Shown here: piece after piece, positions 843-47,758 of the stretch
Layout of the letters: every line of letters begins with the position of its first letter
Position numbering within the stretch: position 1 is the first letter of the stretch
Virus record (IMG/VR): IMGVR_UViG_3300050014_000899
Direction: 5' to 3' (one strand)
From: a virus
DNA length: 64,000 bases
Position numbers and translations under genes: made by a program
Notes under the pieces: model-generated
What the model saw: only the letters and a program-made list of their open reading frames with translations
What the model was told of the DNA's origin: nothing
Database searches by the model: none

Positions 843-1508
843 ATGAAGAATAATAAAGCGTTAATCGTAGTAGATGTACAGAATGATTTCTGTCCAGGGG
901 GAGCATTAGCCGTTACAGAAGGTGATACGATTATACCGATTATCAATAAGCTCCTTCCAGAATTTGAGCTAGTTATTTTTACAAAAGATTGGCATCCAGC
1001 AAGACACAATGGATTTGCATCAAATCATAAAAACGTCAAACCCTTTGAACACTTGATTGTGTGGAACAACAGCGGAGGTTTTGGTGGTGTAATGGATACG
1101 AGTGATGACAATAAAGTTGATCTGGGAATTATGTGGCCCGATCATTGTGTTCAAGATACTCCAGGTGCAGATTTTCATCCCTATCTAGATTTAGGAAAGT
1201 GTAAAGGAGAGTTCTATATCTTTAAAAAAGGAATGGAGACTCATGAGCAGGGTTACAGCGCATTTGAAAAACCTCAATTAGCTTCTTTCTTAGATGGGAA
1301 GGGAATATCTGAACTCTACATTTGCGGGTTGGCTACTGATTATTGCTGCAAACAAACAGCTTTGGATTCTGAAAAATTGGGTTTTGAAACATTTGTTGTT
1401 TTGGATGCTATGAAAGCTATTTCGGACGAAGGAGAAAAAATTGCAATGCTTGAATTAAATAAAAATAACATAAAAATTATTCAATCTTCCGAATTATTAA
1501 CACAATAG
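843..1508 (+). CDS. pncA: nicotinamidase/pyrazinamidase
   Basis: VVDVQNDFCPGGALAV, DWHP, WPDHCVQ and GLATDYC motifs. Confidence 0.97.
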   Translation: MKNNKALIVVDVQNDFCPGGALAVTEGDTIIPIINKLLPEFELVIFTKDWHPARHNGFASNHKNVKPFEHLIVWNNSGGFGGVMDTSDDNKVDLGIMWPDHCVQDTPGADFHPYLDLGKCKGEFYIFKKGMETHEQGYSAFEKPQLASFLDGKGISELYICGLATDYCCKQTALDSEKLGFETFVVLDAMKAISDEGEKIAMLELNKNNIKIIQSSELLTQ

Positions 1509-1544
1509 ACAGAGGCATCATGAATATATAAATAAAACATATTC

Positions 1545-2273
1545 ATGAAAAGAAAATTTAATTTTGTTTATCTAACTATCTGTAAATCCAATGGCAAGTG
1601 TTATGTGGGAAGCCATTGTACGGATCGGACGGATTTAGATGTTAACAGATATTTTGGAGGAGGGGATTTATTTAAAATAGCTTTTAGAAAATACGGAAAA
1701 TCGAAATTTCTTAGAATTATTTTAAAACAATGCGATGATATTATTGAAGCTAGAAATTTAGAAAGACATTATATTGATCTATTTGAAACTCTACGTCCGA
1801 ATGGATATAATATAAGCCCATCTGGCGGGATGGATAGAGGAATGTTTGGAAATCATTCAGAAGAATCCAAATTGCAGATGAGTCAATCAAGGATAGGACA
1901 AGAACCATGGAATAAAGGAAAAACGGGGGTTTATATAACTTCGGAGGAAACTAAGAAAATATTGAGGGACAAAAATTTAGGGGAGAATAATGCTATGTAT
2001 GGGAGAAAAGGAAAAAACTCACCCATATATGGAATCAAGAAATCCCAAGAACATCGAGAAAATCTGGGTAAAGCTAAATTAGGTAATAAAAACCCAAATG
2101 CGGGGCAATATGAAATAATTGATCCCTATGGTAATAAATTTTTAGTTTTGTCGGCAACAGATTTTATAAATGAACATCCAGAATATGGAATTAATCGTCA
2201 TTTTTTATATTCAGCTTCAAAGACAAAAAAACCAAATCATAAAGGATGGAAGGTAATAAAAATACAGGATTAA
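1545..2273 (+). CDS. GIY-YIG homing endonuclease with NUMOD3 repeats
   Basis: FVYLT..CYVGSH, PNGYN, HSEESK/PWNKGK; ATATATAAATA promoter just upstream. Confidence 0.9.
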   Translation: MKRKFNFVYLTICKSNGKCYVGSHCTDRTDLDVNRYFGGGDLFKIAFRKYGKSKFLRIILKQCDDIIEARNLERHYIDLFETLRPNGYNISPSGGMDRGMFGNHSEESKLQMSQSRIGQEPWNKGKTGVYITSEETKKILRDKNLGENNAMYGRKGKNSPIYGIKKSQEHRENLGKAKLGNKNPNAGQYEIIDPYGNKFLVLSATDFINEHPEYGINRHFLYSASKTKKPNHKGWKVIKIQD

Positions 2274-3076: not shown

Positions 3077-3560
3077 AATTGAAGGTTCTATTATAGTTGA
3101 ACCAAACCCAGAATTGGTTCTTTATGCTGTAAGAAGTCAGCAAGGTCAGTATTTTCGTGCTAAGGGTTATCAAGGATATGGTGAAAGTTGGGTAGATACT
3201 CTCCAGGAAGCTAAAATCTATGGCAAAATAGGTATGGCAAAAAGACAAGCCACTTATTGGGGAGCTCATTTTCCTAAATACGGAACTCCGGATGTTATTA
3301 AATTAACACTAGGCTCCATGGAAGTAATTGATCAAAAATCTCGTGTAGAAAAATTCAAGCTTAAAAAAGCTCAGGAAGAAGCTAAAGAAAAGGAAAGAAG
3401 AGCTAAGGAAAGAATAAAAGAAGCTCATGCAGATATTGCTAGGGCTAAAAGAGATATGGAAAATGCTGAAAAGGAGATTCAAAAAATAGGGGAACATTTT
3501 CGAAATCCCAAACTTTCTTTTAACCCCTATGATCCTAGCGAAGACATCGAATTAGATTAA
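3066..3560 (+). CDS. hypothetical phage protein
   Basis: Overlapping co-directional ORF with coiled-coil C-terminus. Confidence 0.7.
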   Translation: MENEIEGSIIVEPNPELVLYAVRSQQGQYFRAKGYQGYGESWVDTLQEAKIYGKIGMAKRQATYWGAHFPKYGTPDVIKLTLGSMEVIDQKSRVEKFKLKKAQEEAKEKERRAKERIKEAHADIARAKRDMENAEKEIQKIGEHFRNPKLSFNPYDPSEDIELD

Positions 3561-7733: not shown

Positions 7734-8912
7734 ATGAATCAAATTATTAAAAGCATCCTAGATAATGACCTTTATAAATTTTCGATGCAATGCGCTGTCA
7801 TGCTACTTTTCCCAAGAGCTAAAGTTCGTTATAAGTTAATAGTTAGAACAAAGGTTGAATTCCCCGAGGGTTTTGCGGAAGAATTGAGAGAACAAATAAA
7901 TAGCATGAGGAATCTTAAACTTGGCGTAGAAGAAAAAACATTTTTCTCTTCTAGATGTAAGTATATGAATCCAATGTACTTCGATTTTCTCGAAGGCTAC
8001 AGATACAATCCTTCTGAGGTTGGGATCATTCAAAATGGTGGGGATCTTCAAATAAACATAGAAGGTTACTGGTATCGCACCATTCTCTGGGAAGTTCCTT
8101 TGATGGCTCTTATTTCAGAGTTATACTTCAAAATGACATTTCATTCAATTTATGATGAAACAACTCGTCATGATCATAATCAGAAAAAAGCAGCCCTTTT
8201 TAATTACAGCAATGTTAAGGTAGCTGATTTTGGAACTAGAAGAAGATATTCTTTCGACATCCAAAAAGAAATGGTAGAGGATCTTAGCCAAAGAATGAAT
8301 TCCGGCTTATTCGTTGGAACTTCAAATGTATTTCTTGCCTACAAATATAATTTAACTCCAATAGGCACTGAAGCTCATGAATGGTTTATGTTTCATGCCG
8401 CAAAATATGGTTTCCAGATGGCAACCGAGCTGGGACTTAAACATTGGTCAGATGTTTATCAAGGTGATCTTGGAACAGTTCTCTCGGATACATTTACTAC
8501 GGATGCTTTCCTGAAATCTTTTGGAAAGAAATATTCAAAACTTTATGATGGACCTCGACAGGATAGCGGAACAGAAATTGTAATTGCTCAGCAATTCATT
8601 GATCATTATAATAAAATGGGTATTGATCCTCTTTCGAAAACCATAGTTTTCTCCAATGCATTAACTCCTGAAAAAGCTATCGAAGTAAACAAATGGTGCA
8701 ACGGACAAATCAAATGTTCATTTGGAATTGGAACCAATTTAAGTAATGATATTGGAGCAGTTCCGCTGAATATGGTTATTAAGATGTCTGCTGCAAAGCC
8801 AGAACCAGAAGACGACTGGATTCCTACTATTAAACTTTCTGATGATGCAGGTAAACATACCGGAGATGAGAAAATGATTGAAGTTTGTAAATATCAACTT
8901 CATATAAAATAA
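7734..8912 (+). CDS. pncB: nicotinate phosphoribosyltransferase
   Basis: LDNDLYKFSM, DFGTRRR, GTSNV, GTEAHEW, RQDSG, FGIGT, KLSD. Confidence 0.97.
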   Translation: MNQIIKSILDNDLYKFSMQCAVMLLFPRAKVRYKLIVRTKVEFPEGFAEELREQINSMRNLKLGVEEKTFFSSRCKYMNPMYFDFLEGYRYNPSEVGIIQNGGDLQINIEGYWYRTILWEVPLMALISELYFKMTFHSIYDETTRHDHNQKKAALFNYSNVKVADFGTRRRYSFDIQKEMVEDLSQRMNSGLFVGTSNVFLAYKYNLTPIGTEAHEWFMFHAAKYGFQMATELGLKHWSDVYQGDLGTVLSDTFTTDAFLKSFGKKYSKLYDGPRQDSGTEIVIAQQFIDHYNKMGIDPLSKTIVFSNALTPEKAIEVNKWCNGQIKCSFGIGTNLSNDIGAVPLNMVIKMSAAKPEPEDDWIPTIKLSDDAGKHTGDEKMIEVCKYQLHIK

Positions 8913-8963
8913 ATTTTTTTCCTACGGTTTTTATTTGTACATTGCGAGTCTAATACTTAATTT

Positions 8964-9887
8964 ATGAAGTATCCCGAAATAGTTGCCAAAACAAAACTTC
9001 TTTATACCGGAGGCGGTGTTCCACTTATCAAACCCGGAGTCTTCACAGACGAATTTATCGACGAACAGATTACTTTAGTAATGGATGAAAAGCTTCTTTC
9101 TGAAAGAGAAATAGATGCTATTGTTCGTTATTGTGTTGATAATAATCTTAATAAAGAGGATAGTGAAAAGCAACTCATGAAATTCCTCAATTGGAATTGC
9201 AAACCAGATGAAAAATTCTGGAGAGAAAGCGGTTCCATCATAATCAAAAAGGAATATTTCAAAACTTGTTCTGGGGAATCGGGAAAAATTCCATGGAATG
9301 CTCTTGGATGGGACGATGTTTTTGGGCCAGAAAGACATGAAACATTTTACAAGCAAAGGAGTTTAATATATGGTTTGGATAATGCCATCAAAACTCTAAG
9401 AGAACTCAGGAAGCAGAAGACTACCCTAAAGTCTCAGAATTCTTACATGTTTAAAAGTGCGGATGAGTATATCAAGGCTATTGAAAATGCCAAAAAAACC
9501 ATCGAAGCTGATGCTATTAAATTTTATAGGGATCCAAATCATTCATTCCAGGATCGTTTGAGTCTTTTTAACATGCTTGGCAAATCGGAGACCTATATCT
9601 TCCATCCTAAACATAAAGGATTGGATAAAATATTTGAGATTCACCAGGAACAAGGATACGTCGAAAGACATCAAAAATATTACTGCTGGGATGTTATCGA
9701 ATGGTGGATGAATCAGATGCTGGAAGGAAGATGCAAAATTGACTATTCAAGAAATCAGTATCACCCGGATCTTAAGCAAAAGAAAAGAAATTATGTTTCT
9801 TCTCAGGCAGCTATTGATAGGCTTTACAATTACTATCTAAATCTTCTGATTGTTGAAGGAGTTAGTGAATTTATATTTGACTGGTAA
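8964..9887 (+). CDS. hypothetical protein
   Basis: 307 aa ORF after an early promoter-like site. Confidence 0.7.
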   Translation: MKYPEIVAKTKLLYTGGGVPLIKPGVFTDEFIDEQITLVMDEKLLSEREIDAIVRYCVDNNLNKEDSEKQLMKFLNWNCKPDEKFWRESGSIIIKKEYFKTCSGESGKIPWNALGWDDVFGPERHETFYKQRSLIYGLDNAIKTLRELRKQKTTLKSQNSYMFKSADEYIKAIENAKKTIEADAIKFYRDPNHSFQDRLSLFNMLGKSETYIFHPKHKGLDKIFEIHQEQGYVERHQKYYCWDVIEWWMNQMLEGRCKIDYSRNQYHPDLKQKKRNYVSSQAAIDRLYNYYLNLLIVEGVSEFIFDW

Positions 9888-45034: not shown

Positions 45035-45907
45035 ATGAAAGACGAATTAGGTGACAGAATGAAGGGTAATTACGAAGACAGAACTCGTTTCTCCCTTCCA
45101 AGAAGAACATATACAATTATCCGAGTTGACGGAAAAGCATTTCACACATTAACAAAGGGGATGTGTAAACCGTTCAGCGTAGATTTTAAACAAAACGTAT
45201 TTGCTGGTTTTATGGACAAAACAGCAAAAGCTTTATGCGAACATATTCAAGGAGCTCAGTTTGCTTTTGTTCAGTCCGATGAAATCTCAGTTTTGTTAAC
45301 TGATTTTGAAAAGACTACAACTGATGCATGGTTTGATGCCAATATTCAGAAAATGGCTTCCGTAGCTGCTTCAATTGCTACAGCTGCTTTTAACAAAGCT
45401 AGACTGATAAGAGTTTTCGAGGAATTCCCCAATACATTTGATATTGAACCTGAATTGGATTGCTATACTGTTGCAAAAATGATCGATATGGTTAAAGTTG
45501 GGGAATTTGATGCAAGAGTATTTACTATCCCGGATCCAATAGAAGTTGAAAACTACTTTATATGGAGACAAAAAGATGCCGTAAGAAACTCTGTTTCGAT
45601 GGCCGCTAAATCTCTTTATTCAACAAAAGAACTCGAAGGAGTATCTTCTCAGGGAAAACTGGATTTGATTCACGATAAAGGAGAAAATTGGAATGATCTC
45701 CCCGATGGATTTAAAAGAGGACGTTTAATATCTTACAACTATTCTTTTGATCTTGAAACTGCTCCTTTAAATACTGGATCCTTTAAAGAAGAACACCAAA
45801 TGGTTGAGGGGGTTTCCAGAGGAGCTTGGGAAGTTAATCCTGCTCCGGATTTTCTTAAGGAAAGGGATGAGTTGAGAGACCGTATTCCAAAAATAGAAGT
45901 AAATTAA
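45035..45907 (+). CDS. thg1: tRNA-His guanylyltransferase-like protein (Thg1/TLP)
   Basis: IIRVDGKAFH, QSDEIS, FDAR, YFIWRQKDA. Confidence 0.95.
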   Translation: MKDELGDRMKGNYEDRTRFSLPRRTYTIIRVDGKAFHTLTKGMCKPFSVDFKQNVFAGFMDKTAKALCEHIQGAQFAFVQSDEISVLLTDFEKTTTDAWFDANIQKMASVAASIATAAFNKARLIRVFEEFPNTFDIEPELDCYTVAKMIDMVKVGEFDARVFTIPDPIEVENYFIWRQKDAVRNSVSMAAKSLYSTKELEGVSSQGKLDLIHDKGENWNDLPDGFKRGRLISYNYSFDLETAPLNTGSFKEEHQMVEGVSRGAWEVNPAPDFLKERDELRDRIPKIEVN

Positions 45908-45943
45908 TTTTTTTACTAAGGATTTTTGTTGTACATTTGCTTT

Positions 45944-46471
45944 ATGAATAAGTATTTAATCTACGGACTTTATTGCCCATTTACCGATAACTTACATTAT
46001 GTCGGACAAAGCAGTACCGGAATGACGAGACCCAAATCTCATATGACCGGAAGAAGTTCAAAGAAAATAGGTGAATGGGTTGACCAATTAAAATTTTTAG
46101 GATATAAGCCTATAATTAAAATACTTGAAGAATGCTCAAAAGATAATCTTGATGAAAAAGAAAAATATTGGATTAAAAAATCCAAAGATGAGGGGGCATA
46201 TCTTTTAAATGTTGTGTACAACAAAACTGAGAAGATATTATTTCAAAAAGAATATGAATTTAGTGATGCGGATATTTTAACTATTGCTAAAATAATTCGA
46301 GAAACCCGCCACAAATTAGATATTCGTCAAGAGGATTTATGCGAAGCAGCAGGAATTACTCGTCCAACTTTATACATGATTGAAAAAGGAAACAATAAAA
46401 CAGTTTATAATAATTTGAAAAAGGTTTTGGGGATTTTGGGATTTGAAATTACGATTCGAAAAAAATCATAA
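45944..46471 (+). CDS. GIY-YIG-like domain fused to XRE-type HTH
   Basis: LIYGLYCP..YVGQS and RQEDLCEAAGITRPTLYMIEKG. Confidence 0.8.
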   Translation: MNKYLIYGLYCPFTDNLHYVGQSSTGMTRPKSHMTGRSSKKIGEWVDQLKFLGYKPIIKILEECSKDNLDEKEKYWIKKSKDEGAYLLNVVYNKTEKILFQKEYEFSDADILTIAKIIRETRHKLDIRQEDLCEAAGITRPTLYMIEKGNNKTVYNNLKKVLGILGFEITIRKKS

Positions 46472-46524: not shown

Positions 46525-46797
46525 ATGGAAAATACTACATTTGACAATAAACAAAAGGAACTTAGGGAACAACTCATGGCAAGACCTACCCCGGTTCACT
46601 TTACTTACAGAAAAGCTGATGGAACTATCAGAGATGCCATTGGTACCCTTCGTCCTGGATTAATTCCGGTAAGCAAAGAACCTAAGTCTCCTAATTTAAA
46701 CGACAATCCAAGTCTTAATCTGAGATATTATGATCTTCAGAAAGAGGCTTGGAGGTCTTTAACACAGGATTGTTCAATTATAAATATTTTGGACTAG
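46525..46797 (+). CDS. WYL-like/SH3 beta-barrel protein (DUF2693-like)
   Basis: FTYRKADGTIRDAIGTL..YYDLQKEAWRS. Confidence 0.8.
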   Translation: MENTTFDNKQKELREQLMARPTPVHFTYRKADGTIRDAIGTLRPGLIPVSKEPKSPNLNDNPSLNLRYYDLQKEAWRSLTQDCSIINILD

Positions 46798-46856: not shown

Positions 46857-47435
46857 ATGTTTTATGTATATCAATTAAGTTCTTTATCTTACGGGGTTTT
46901 TTATATTGGAAAAGGAAAAGGAAACAGAATGTACCGGCATAGTGAAATAGCTCGGGGAAATTCTATTAATAGGAAAACTAATATTCATTTGTATAACCGA
47001 ATTTTAAAAATTATTCAGTCAGATGAAAAATTGGTTTATAAAAAAATATTTACTTCTGAAAATGAGGAGGAATGTTTAAAAGTTGAAATCCAATATATTA
47101 AGGAATATGGAACTTTTCATAAAGTTAAAGGAATTAAGCGAGGCCCTTTATTAAATTTGACACTAGGTGGAGAAGGAACTTCCGGATATACATTATCCGA
47201 AGAGACAAAAGAAAAAATGTCAAAAGCAAAAAAAGGAAAAAGTTTGCCTAAATGGTCGGATGAGTCGAAAGAAAAGTTGTCAAAAACAAATATGGGGAAG
47301 AAGGGATTCTGGGAAGGAAAAAATTTATCCGAAAAAACAAAAGAGAACATGAGCAAATCTCATCTTGGAAAAAATAAAGGACCCATTTCTGAGAAACGAA
47401 GATTAGCTATTATAGAAGGAATGAAAAAATATTGA
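46857..47435 (+). CDS. GIY-YIG homing endonuclease with NUMOD3 repeats
   Basis: FYVYQL..FYIGKGKGNR, LNLTLGGEG, SEETKEKMS repeats. Confidence 0.9.
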   Translation: MFYVYQLSSLSYGVFYIGKGKGNRMYRHSEIARGNSINRKTNIHLYNRILKIIQSDEKLVYKKIFTSENEEECLKVEIQYIKEYGTFHKVKGIKRGPLLNLTLGGEGTSGYTLSEETKEKMSKAKKGKSLPKWSDESKEKLSKTNMGKKGFWEGKNLSEKTKENMSKSHLGKNKGPISEKRRLAIIEGMKKY

Positions 47436-47633
47436 TACAGAGAATTCGTCGCACTACGGTGAGAAACTTCAGTCCATCACAGCTGAAAGCGGGAGATCTA
47501 ACTAATCGTTAATACCGCTGAGAGATGCAACTTAAACAGACTTAGACTAAAAGCTGATCAATGATAGTCGGGTTAAGGCCAATAGACAAATGACGAAATA
47601 AAGCAAAAGACTGGGTACGCTCATATCAATATT
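47428..47633 (+). ncRNA. rnpB: compact RNase P-like RNA
   Basis: P1 ATATTGATA/TATCAATAT; P2 TTCGTCG/TGACGAA; P3; P4 GAGAA-ACTTCAGTC with CAAAA-GACTGGGT-AC (bulged U); CR-IV-like TAGACAAATG. Confidence 0.75.
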
Positions 47634-47637
47634 AAAT

Positions 47638-47745
47638 GGTTTCGTAGCTTAGGGGCAGAGTACTGGCGGAACATGCGGGGAGCGAGAGATCGTCCGTAAT
47701 GACCTAGAGGCATACGGGGCGGAGGTTCGATTCCTTCCGAGACCA
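47638..47745 (+). ncRNA. tRNA-like RNA with enlarged anticodon domain
   Basis: GGTTTCG/CGAGACC, D-arm, T-arm, ~50-nt structured insert. Confidence 0.6.
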
Positions 47746-47758
47746 CAAAAATTAAATT

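Follow-up and report, generated by a model that had tools for sequence, protein, structure and literature searches.

A probable half-size RNase P RNA of bacterial type A descent encoded by large phages

RNase P trims the 5′ end of new tRNAs, and its RNA is regarded as a universal cellular ribozyme. Large phages already bring translation-related tRNAs, tmRNA, synthetases and ribosomal proteins. The locus studied here, positions 47428-47633 (+ strand) of a 64,000-nt stretch of DNA from a giant peat-soil phage (the whole stretch is referred to below as the window), raises the question of whether such phages also encode an RNase P RNA. The initial annotation had proposed a miniature RNase P RNA at this place. 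We found that this identity is strongly supported by the type A topology with its covariation, by the match of a relative (L050) to the bacterial RNase P RNA model RF00010, by the matches of a model of the phage copies (R1) to bacterial RNase P RNAs, and by the presence of RnpA in some carriers. We conclude that 47428-47633 (+) is probably the gene of a phage RNase P RNA of half the usual size, descended from bacterial type A. A literature search found no publication describing a phage RNase P RNA, and the RNA family, which is large, phage-borne and includes one cultured phage, is unpublished.

Structure of the RNA in the window

The whole gene, from the 5′ to the 3′ strand of P1, comprises 206 nt. 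The catalytic domain is retained (P1-P6, P15-P17, CR-I, CR-IV, CR-V, the U bulge of P4, the adenosine of J5/15 and an L15 with GG). The specificity domain, which in bacteria occupies ~150-200 nt and reads the T-loop/D-loop elbow of the tRNA, is replaced by a single 32-nt hairpin, and P18 is absent. The features of the locus are as follows.

46857-47435, + strand: GIY-YIG/NUMOD3 homing endonuclease ORF (Pfam NUMOD3, LEM-3_GIY-YIG); its stop codon (47433-35) lies within P1
47428-47437 with 47624-47633, + strand: P1, 10 bp; CA bulge at 47438-39
47440-42 (GAG) with 47620-22 (CUC), + strand: P1 extension, which covaries
47445-47450 (UUCGUC) with 47592-47597 (GACGAA), + strand: P2
47452-47461, + strand: P3 hairpin, CAC-UACG-GUG, with a UACG loop
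47462-47474, + strand: J3/4 GAGAA (CR-I-like) and P4 5′ strand, AAC-U-(bulged U47469)-CAGUC
47466-68 and 47470-74 with 47609-16, + strand: P4 with bulged U47469, a pseudoknot across P2
47475-47478 (CAUC) with 47524-47527 (GAUG), + strand: P5
47480-47484 (CAGCU) with 47552-47556 (AGCUG) in the P17 loop, + strand: P6 pseudoknot
47488-47519, + strand: hairpin in the position of the specificity domain (P7-P14); outer stem 47488-92/47515-19, inner stem 47495-97/47505-07
47493-94 (GA) opposite 47508-14 (GUUAAUA), + strand: conserved internal loop of the replacement hairpin, family-specific
47524-47530, + strand: P5 3′ strand, then J5/15 CAA
47531-47542, + strand: P15 5′ strand CUUAA, L15 5′ side ACA and P16 5′ strand GACU, pairing with 47566-77
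47543-47565, + strand: UAG, weak P17, loop with the P6 3′ strand, and J17/16 AAUGAU
47566-47577, + strand: P16 3′ strand AGUC, L15 3′ side GGG (47570-72) and P15 3′ strand UUAAG
47578-47591, + strand: J15/2 with CR-IV-like AUAGACAAAU (47582-91); no P18
47592-47616, + strand: P2 3′ strand GACGAA, J2/4 AUAAAGCAAAA (CR-V-like) and P4 3′ strand GACUGGGU
47617-47633, + strand: ACG linker, then the P1 3′ strand: CUC, bulged A and UAUCAAUAUU
47638-47745, + strand: tRNA-like gene (RF00005, 37.5 bits) with a 7-bp acceptor stem, D arm and T arm

Reading the sequence, we found P1, P2, P3, P4 with its bulged U and the CR-IV-like segment each at the coordinates that had been claimed for them, and P4 in the contexts that had been described, GAGAA in J3/4 and AAAGCAAAA in J2/4, with compensated sequence. 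The CR-IV-like AUAGACAAAU lies immediately 5′ of the P2 3′ strand. At the P18 site only 4 nt separate it from P15, the full linker from P15 to P2 being 14 nt. To our knowledge, P8, which belongs to the missing specificity domain, is the sole partner of P18. P17 is barely formed in the window copy (only G47545-C47559 and A47546-U47558). The stability of the single-sequence fold is ordinary (z = -0.14), and the support for the structure is comparative, not thermodynamic.

Apart from the final 8 nt of the endonuclease ORF and the terminal part of a 41-aa ORF on the minus strand (47621-47746), no long ORF overlaps the RNA. The endonuclease ORF is an insertion relative to the related locus L001, where none separates the WYL_2 gene from the RNA. 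A group I intron remnant or homing-endonuclease-associated spacer, guessed from the adjacent GIY-YIG ORF, was dropped given the existence of the family and its RNase P topology. A tmRNA was also rejected: ARAGORN finds none at the locus, and the topology is unfit.

A scan for promoters and terminators gave nothing above shuffled sequences, and we propose no transcription unit. Positions 47442-47591 have an exact match in a 151-nt contig of a metatranscriptome library from peat, which is compatible with expression but is not proof of it. The flanks of the RNA are without cover in RNA-library contigs, which should not be taken as a sign of differential expression. For X18 and X19, the RNA contigs come from relatives and continue into unlike sequence.

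Covariation, conservation and homology to bacterial RNase P RNA

Relatives of the window copy were gathered through a protein database and contig look-up. The pattern GGAGANCTAANNANTCGTT gave 30 matches, mostly due to chance, with about a dozen real ones. R1, a covariance model built from phage copies alone and covering the core from CR-I to CR-V, finds 74 distinct members and scores the window core (47460-47618) at 151.4 bits (E = 1.6e-28). A 23-sequence MAFFT alignment (A2), in which a 2-nt indel is misplaced at the P15 3′ strand, is excluded from the counts given here.

The structure is conserved under selection. When 20 relatives were aligned with MAFFT, blind to structure, 92.0% of cells were paired, as against 24-42% when the partners were slid, and this alignment had 198 double-change cells versus 15-29 in the slid controls. 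Across the 74 distinct sequences the values were 91.8% versus 29-43%, with 718 double-change cells, and none of 500 shuffles scored as high.

Individual helices contribute to this signal to different extents. P1, P2 and P3 are supported with double changes in an 11-sequence MAFFT alignment, where P1 is 77%, its extension 97%, P2 100% and P3 88% paired; four of the six P2 pairs show double changes there. GAUA/UAUC of P1 has become AGUG/CACU in L002, a compensated replacement, and the GAG/CUC extension covaries between GC, AU and CG types. P3 is longer or branched in relatives (CUC/GAG in L012; GNRA-capped 6-bp stems in L006 and L050). P4 is 98-100% paired (98.5% on the 74 sequences) with five covarying pairs, and the base preceding its bulge covaries with its partner (UG 51, CG 14, UA 4, GC 4). 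On the 74 sequences, P5 is 99.7% paired with all four pairs covarying, P15 and P16 are 85% and 89% paired, both covarying, and the two stems of the replacement hairpin are 96% and 99% paired and also covary. The weakest helix is P17, 65% paired across the same set, and the pairing of its loop in P6 is retained.

The P6 pseudoknot, in which the P17 loop pairs with the strand 3′ of P5, is specific to type A RNAs. It is 100% paired in the 20-relative MAFFT alignment and 95.6% paired in the 74 sequences, with double changes in five of five pairs. P6 was left out of R1.

At the level of single nucleotides, GAGnAA and the bulged U of P4 are invariant (74/74), as are the J5/15 adenosine (position 67), which aligns with GCAA of RF00010, CR-IV A119 G120 .. 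A125 U126, and J2/4 A137, C139, A140 and A143 (A.CA..A). The CR-IV segment of the window aligns to uAGAugAAUG of RF00010. In bacteria, the GG(U) of L15 pairs with the 3′ CCA of tRNA; the 3′ side of L15 reads GGG, AGG, UGG or GGU in 69 of the 74 members, contains GG in 70, and aligns to CGGGU of RF00010. In the replacement hairpin, the loop positions G33 G34 A35 G36 / C45 G46 .. A52 C53 are invariant or nearly so.

The initial annotation had suggested covariance models of RNase P as a check, and the outcome was divided: the Rfam RNase P models miss the window copy, and the relative L050 aligns to RF00010 (E = 8.5e-7). For the window copy, searched as 221 nt and as 2.5 kb with E up to 10, the only RNase P model reported was RF00373 (7.5 bits, E = 3.1). 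RF00010, with its 100-bit gathering score, gave no match at E up to 10, and neither did the type T model RF02357 for the 221-nt and 2.5-kb queries. For the copy in Stenotrophomonas phage DLP6, Rfam reports nothing. The miss of the window copy reflects the insensitivity of full-length models to a half-size RNA and is not counter-evidence to the RNase P reading. L050 aligns end to end with RF00010 (positions 1-367, 26.2 bits), including the P1-P2-P3 helices, and skips its specificity domain (model positions ~74-210) and P18; even this best member lies far under the gathering score (26 versus 100 bits).

Homology is also seen in the reverse direction. R1 matches bacterial loci from CR-I to CR-V at 31-56 bits; of 18 such loci that were checked, 16 score above the gathering threshold of RF00010 and are genes of that family. 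Its best match at rnpB of E. coli is the CR-IV/CR-V segment (E = 0.007), where E. coli carries UAGAUGAAU in the place of AUAGACAAAU of the window, 5′ of the P2 3′ strand. A blastn search of GenBank phages with the window copy gave no match, and other members used as queries did retrieve records. Scans of viral contigs for the downstream 177-aa protein and for the exact tRNA-like 3′ end found nothing.

Carrier phages, genomic context and proposed function

The RNA is present in one copy apiece in five phage genomes that are 95-100% complete (362-483 kb), and these five near-complete genomes lack a canonical RF00010 gene. Copies are also found in the GenBank huge phages LR745206, LR756501 and LR756511 and in the cultured DLP6, whose copy (KU682439.2, about 105,775-106,017) has two extra hairpins at the P18 site. 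Carriers, which include huge phages of Al-Shayeb 2020, span T4-like phages of 168 kb up to phages of 735 kb. GenBank phage records, among them those of a cultured T4-like phage and of the largest published phage genomes, do not annotate the RNA. RnpA (PF00825, above cut-off and with an intact RNR motif) is encoded in 3 of 13 RNA-bearing phage records tested; the 64-kb window contains no RnpA gene, and most carrier phages are without one. A phage RnpA is encoded in L076. A search for phage RnpA loci with weak N-terminal patterns gave three loci only and provides no estimate of distribution.

A tRNA gene lies within 3 kb of the RNA in 33 of the 74 members, and over half are without one in the available DNA. 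Many members lie inside or beside tRNA arrays. In five members and in the window a tRNA begins directly after P1. The window was said to have a tRNA-like RNA 4 nt downstream of the RNA, and this is borne out by the RF00005 match at 47638-47745, which reaches 37.5 bits against a 29-bit gathering score through its acceptor, D and T arms. This element has 47 nt at the site of the anticodon arm, where 15 are expected, and is absent from the ARAGORN predictions. L001 and L002 carry it in synteny, with an interior unlike that of the window. The window contains many further non-canonical tRNA-like genes. The initial annotation took the RNA to be a ribozyme dedicated to such tRNAs of this phage, which is a conjecture; the family also occurs in phages with a conventional tRNA complement, such as DLP6, which has 30 annotated tRNAs.

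On balance, we favour the view that large phages have a working, catalytic-domain-only RNase P of bacterial type. The RNA would fold through its P2/P4 and P6 pseudoknots and bind RnpA, in most cases that of the host but, for some of the largest phages, one of their own, and would cleave the 5′ leaders off the phage's own tRNA precursors. The GA / GUUnnYA loop of the closing hairpin may take over the contact that was lost with the specificity domain. Such cleavage could add RNase P capacity during infection or give independence from the host. Where a tRNA or tRNA-like gene lies a few bases downstream, as at 47638, one RNase P cut might also free the 3′ end of the ribozyme itself. Homology, structure, conservation, distribution and genomic context are shown by the data, and catalysis, the protein partner and the biological role are what we infer from them, catalysis from the conserved core. 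Work on engineered RNAs bears on its feasibility: the catalytic domain of E. coli cleaves substrates by itself, whether or not the protein is present, requires a P6-like contact, and can dispense with P18 after loss of the specificity domain (PMC5839562). Domain-only engineered RNAs also cleave with lowered efficiency (PMC5839562), so that strong cellular activity of the phage RNA is not to be assumed.

The lowered efficiency of engineered forms without the specificity domain (PMC5839562) could also speak for a non-catalytic decoy. Such an RNA would keep the surfaces that bind RnpA and the CCA end, soak up host RnpA or pre-tRNAs, and thereby throttle or redirect host tRNA maturation. Most carrier phages are without their own RnpA, so that the protein which the RNA encounters must be the host's, and there is a viral precedent in a poxvirus RNA that is like H1 RNA and is reported to be inactive on pre-tRNA in vitro. 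We nevertheless consider a decoy unlikely, because the invariant positions (the P4 bulged U, J3/4, J2/4 and the J5/15 A) define the active site and extend beyond the protein-binding surface, and because the P6 contact, important for catalysis by the isolated catalytic domain, is maintained by covariation. Moreover, the gene lies among the phage's own tRNA genes, which need RNase P, and some phages also carry RnpA, which a sponge would hardly need. A core that is active on other substrates is a different matter. The elbow-measuring specificity domain has been swapped for a different conserved module, over half of the members are not adjacent to tRNA genes in the available DNA, in the clade of the window a tRNA-like RNA whose interior is not that of a tRNA comes after the gene, and the window has many non-canonical tRNA-like genes. 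All of this could fit a ribozyme whose main substrates are phage tRNA-like scaffolds, other structured RNAs or host RNAs rather than ordinary pre-tRNAs. Members, however, occur in phages with ordinary tRNA sets (DLP6), often with a standard tRNA directly downstream, L15 keeps its GG motif for the CCA end, and no alternative substrate has been identified; we regard such retargeting as quite improbable.

The half size of the RNA, its scores under the Rfam thresholds, and the mobile endonuclease genes beside or inside the RNA gene might suggest a captured, truncated fragment of host rnpB that is decaying without function. Against this, the 74 distinct sequences retain 12 helices through hundreds of compensatory changes with invariant core nucleotides, the truncation is identical throughout the members, near-complete genomes carry a single copy, and the RNA is conserved from 168-kb T4-like to 735-kb phages. 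We give this possibility almost no weight, and the covariation, as we read it, effectively refutes it.

If the preferred reading of a working phage RNase P is true, the translation-related repertoire of phages would be extended by a ribozyme, a virus-encoded half-size RNase P RNA. It would be the first RNase P ribozyme from a virus and, among natural ones of bacterial type, the smallest, and DLP6, being cultured, would be usable for testing. The family would also present a natural experiment on a catalytic domain without a specificity domain, a subject addressed so far mostly with engineered RNAs, and both the RnpA genes of phages and the conserved hairpin in place of that domain would offer handles for biochemistry and structural work. 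Annotation pipelines overlook these genes because the Rfam thresholds fail for them.

Comparison with known RNase P RNAs and phage ribozymes

The closest counterpart of the phage RNA is the bacterial class A RNA (E. coli M1 RNA, rnpB; RF00010). The two share the order and topology of P1, P2, P3, P4 with its bulged U, P5, P6, P15, L15, P16 and P17, carry the GAGGAA, GCAA, CGGGU, UAGAUnAAUG and ACAGAA..GGCUA motifs at matching places, and detect each other through covariance models. They differ in that the phage RNA is phage-encoded and measures 206 nt rather than about 330-400 nt, has one hairpin with its own conserved loop instead of P7-P14, CR-II and CR-III, is without P18, and scores 0-26 bits against the 100-bit gathering score.

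Natural RNase P RNAs of about 200 nt that have lost nearly the whole specificity domain are reportedly found in Pyrobaculum and its relatives (type T, RF02357), as Lai et al. are said to have described in PNAS in 2010. Type T RNA is encoded on archaeal chromosomes and is the sole RNase P RNA of its cell, whereas the phage RNA appears to descend from bacterial type A and has P6, P15-P17 and the GG of L15. It seems to resemble type T in kind, as a catalytic-domain-only RNase P, and is not a member of RF02357. The poxvirus RNA, from a eukaryotic virus, shares with the phage RNA that it is virus-encoded and RNase P RNA-like (in its case H1 RNA-like); it is reported not to process pre-tRNA in vitro, and it is not known to belong to a large covarying family.

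Among phage ribozymes, the theta (HDV-like) ribozymes likewise adjoin phage tRNA genes and, according to one proposal, make the maturation of phage tRNAs independent of host nucleases (PMC10879173). They are, however, small and self-cleaving, act in cis on 3′ trailers and have an unrelated fold, whereas RNase P acts in trans on 5′ leaders. CPR bacteria have reduced type A RNase P RNAs that fall below the Rfam thresholds, have lost some helices (P12-P14, P16-P18) and were found only once cut-offs had been lowered (Lui et al. 2021, PMC8172020). These are cellular genes with a specificity domain, in contrast to the phage form, which is without that domain entirely.

The engineered Eco CP RPR (Mao et al. 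2018, PMC5839562) is, like the phage RNA, a type A catalytic domain without the specificity domain, and its need for a P6-like contact and the dispensability of its P18 match what the phage RNAs keep and drop. The phage RNA differs from this construct in being natural and selected, and in having the conserved GA / GUUnnYA loop in its closing hairpin, which the construct does not contain.

Structure and identity of the window RNA

The initial annotation had read the 206-nt RNA at 47428-47633 (+) as a miniature RNase P RNA, and each of the elements named there, P1, P2, P3, P4 with a bulged U in its flanking contexts and a CR-IV-like segment, can indeed be read in the sequence.

Elements of the window RNA
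47428-37 with 47624-33, +, P1, terminal helix: 10 bp, extended by GAG/CUC
47445-50 with 47592-97, +, P2: read from the sequence
Small hairpin with UACG loop, +, P3: read from the sequence
47466-74 with 47609-16, +, P4, long-range: one unpaired U; contexts GAGAA and AAAGCAAAA
47480-84 (just 3′ of P5) with 47552-56 (loop of the last hairpin), +, P6 pseudoknot: covariation
47488-47519, +, one hairpin replacing the S-domain
Directly 5′ of the P2 3′ strand, +, CR-IV-like AUAGACAAAU: read from the sequence

The elements follow one another as P1, P2, P3, J3/4-P4, P5, P6, hairpin, P5′, J5/15, P15, L15, P16, P17 (the loop of which is P6′), P16′, L15′, P15′, CR-IV, P2′, J2/4, P4′ and P1′. This order is that of the catalytic domain (C-domain) in the type A RNase P RNA of bacteria. 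Throughout the family, the specificity domain (S-domain, P7-P14) is swapped for the single hairpin and P18 is missing. Within the hairpin is an asymmetric internal loop, conserved in the family, in which GA faces GUUnnYA; this loop has no counterpart in RF00010, the Rfam model of bacterial class A RNase P RNA. The unpaired positions invariant across all members (GAGnAA, the A of J5/15, AG..AU of CR-IV and A.CA..A of J2/4) are those conserved in RF00010; the GG of the L15 3′ side is found in 70 of the 74 members.

One family member, L050, aligned with RF00010 over the whole model (1-367; 26.2 bits, E 8.5e-7), matching P1-P5, P15-P17 and the conserved regions and skipping the S-domain and P18. 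A pattern covering CR-IV through CR-V of the phage RNAs was found in bacterial genomes as well, and at those loci R1, a covariance model of the RNA core built from phage copies only, matched CR-I to CR-V with 31-56 bits. At sixteen of the 18 loci checked, the R1 match lies inside a gene that exceeds the RF00010 gathering score; the other two loci belong to CPR bacteria, a group with RNase P RNAs known for scoring below thresholds (PMC8172020). In E. coli, R1 matched the rnpB locus best at the J18/2-P2-J2/4-P4 segment (E 0.007). The Rfam check proposed initially failed for the window copy, which drew no report from the RNase P models even at E up to 10. The type A catalytic-domain order, the L050 alignment and the R1 matches to bacterial genes bear out the identity proposed initially, and we regard it as almost certain that the window RNA is a miniature RNase P RNA.

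Family members and covariation

The first relatives were found through homologues of the downstream 177-aa gene, on contigs L001-L004, which carry the same element in the same place with P1, P2 and P4 compensated; further IMG/VR copies were drawn by two degenerate patterns from conserved blocks. R1 was trained on 20 phage sequences, leaves out P6 and spans 158 positions, starting at CR-I and ending with the P4 3′ strand. It gave 80 matches with E below 1e-10, 74 of them distinct, and scored the window copy at 151 bits.

In a structure-blind MAFFT alignment of the 20 sequences, 92.0% of pairs were standard, compared with 24-42% when partners were slid by 1-3 columns, and cells with both bases of a pair altered numbered 198 versus 15-29. 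Among the 74 distinct sequences 91.8% were paired (29-43% slid), with 718 such double changes, and none of 500 shuffles attained the observed values. P1, P2 and P3 were backed by a MAFFT alignment of 11 sequences. P6, a second pseudoknot that was not among the elements named initially and the defining mark of type A RNase P RNAs, was 96-100% paired, with double changes in all five pairs, though it lies outside R1. The base before the unpaired U of P4 and its partner occur as U-G (51), C-G (14), U-A (4) and G-C (4), and covariation settles the P4 register. The U itself (window position 47469) is invariant (74/74), and a C-G pair directly follows it, as in bacterial P4. Folded alone, the window RNA is of ordinary stability (z = -0.14); for this reason, and for want of an Rfam RNase P match, a single-sequence analysis would reject the finding. 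We conclude that the RNA is homologous to the RNase P catalytic domain and that its fold and core nucleotides are under purifying selection.

The smallest contigs bearing the RNA are about 1 kb long and the largest 483 kb, and there is a single copy in each of the five genomes (362-483 kb) with a completeness of 95-100%. It is also present, unannotated, in the GenBank records of the published huge phages LR745206, LR756501 (735 kb) and LR756511. The cultured T4-like Stenotrophomonas phage DLP6 (KU682439.2) bears it too (R1 61 bits, E 1e-11), in an unannotated 258-nt gap of its tRNA cluster, just 5′ of tRNA-Arg-CCG. The DLP6 copy has a 7-bp P6 and, between P15 and CR-IV, where bacterial RNAs have P18, two additional small hairpins (L316 2960-3010), one with a UUCG cap.

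Several other members depart from the common form. In L034, which has RNA copies at 3390-3524 (-) and 3217-3378 (-) bordering a 35-gene tRNA array, a partial second copy (45 bits) lies 12 nt from a full one (111 bits). In L064 (8629-9280 (-)) and also L063, the gene is interrupted in the P16/P17 region by an insertion of about 450 nt. In L064 the insertion has, on the minus strand at 8704-9114, an ORF for an HNH-type endonuclease of 136 aa, and the 5′ portion of the RNA gene carries a P17-like stub of its own. L138 (JBAZIW010000001.1), a MAG labelled Candidatus Paceibacterota, and IMGVR_UViG_3300029288_000055 are both 362,763 bp and carry the same copy (both 135.3 bits), and L138 appears to be a huge-phage genome deposited under the label of a CPR bacterial MAG; L175 seems to be another such case.

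Genomic neighbourhood, RnpA and possible expression

The window RNA sits between the stop of a GIY-YIG/NUMOD3 homing-endonuclease ORF (46857-47435), the stop codon falling within P1, and the tRNA-like RNA noted beside it initially, which is a 108-nt gene at 47638-47745. Upstream are genes for a Thg1-like tRNA-His guanylyltransferase (45035-45907) and a WYL_2 (Sm-like) protein (46525-46797), in an order kept in L001 and relatives, a conserved neighbourhood; with the RNA they look like a small tRNA-maturation gene cluster. A second GIY-YIG ORF, with an HTH, lies at 45926-46471. The Thg1-like gene and the RNA flank both GIY-YIG ORFs, L001 has neither of these ORFs, and in L005 a GIY-YIG ORF lies just 3′ of the RNA copy.

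As far as contig sequence reaches, a tRNA gene lies no more than 3 kb away in 33 of the 74 members, and in five members plus the window a tRNA begins directly after P1. In three related phages (window 47638-47745; L002 938-1029; L001 3896-3988) the tRNA-like gene is always just downstream of the RNA. It has normal acceptor, D and T arms, a 30-50-nt variable interior instead of an anticodon arm, and no encoded CCA; ARAGORN missed the window copy and called one of the other two tRNA-Leu(caa) and one tRNA-???. On L008, a 150-kb phage contig, ARAGORN found a tmRNA gene (1263-1644 (-); tag peptide ending ALAS) among tRNA genes, at a distance of about 1.3 kb from its copy of the miniature RNA.

Homologues of the RNase P protein RnpA, above the Pfam cut-off and with the RNR motif intact, are encoded by 3 of 13 RNA-bearing phage records and absent from the rest, complete DLP6 included; the 64-kb window has none.

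Phage RnpA homologues (99-114 aa, motif KKFxRAVDRNRIKR)
L076 1498-1797 (-)
L077 1462-1806 (+)
LR745206.1 76444-76752

In two phages the RnpA gene adjoins a ClpP-like protease gene. The element is carried as one copy per phage genome, frequently linked to tRNA genes and occasionally accompanied by RnpA. A peat metatranscriptome library includes a contig of 151 nt with an exact match to 47442-47591; this is compatible with expression of the RNA but no proof of it.

Predicted activity and known systems

On this comparative evidence, the window RNA is probably an active tRNA-processing ribozyme. With host or phage RnpA, it would trim 5′ leaders off phage pre-tRNAs, and where a tRNA directly follows the RNA that cut would also make the RNA's own 3′ end. 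The specialisation for non-canonical tRNAs that was suggested initially may hold but is not required, because phages with ordinary tRNA sets also bear the RNA. A rival explanation is a decoy that soaks up RnpA or pre-tRNA, for which the camelpox RNase P-like RNA provides a precedent (PMC3001073); another is a ribozyme that has been retargeted. A decaying remnant is excluded by the covariation.

An active phage RNase P is feasible because the E. coli C-domain alone cleaves, both with and without protein; the isolated domain needs a P6-like contact and can dispense with P18 once the S-domain is removed (PMC5839562), and the phage RNAs keep and drop exactly the parts that it needs and can spare. 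In the literature searched, including the huge-phage and DLP6 papers, we found no description of RNase P RNA or RnpA encoded by a phage, and Rfam 15 has no family for the phage miniature RNA. Natural RNase P RNAs lacking the S-domain are already known in archaea (type T), and the phage RNA is therefore a variant rather than a new kind.
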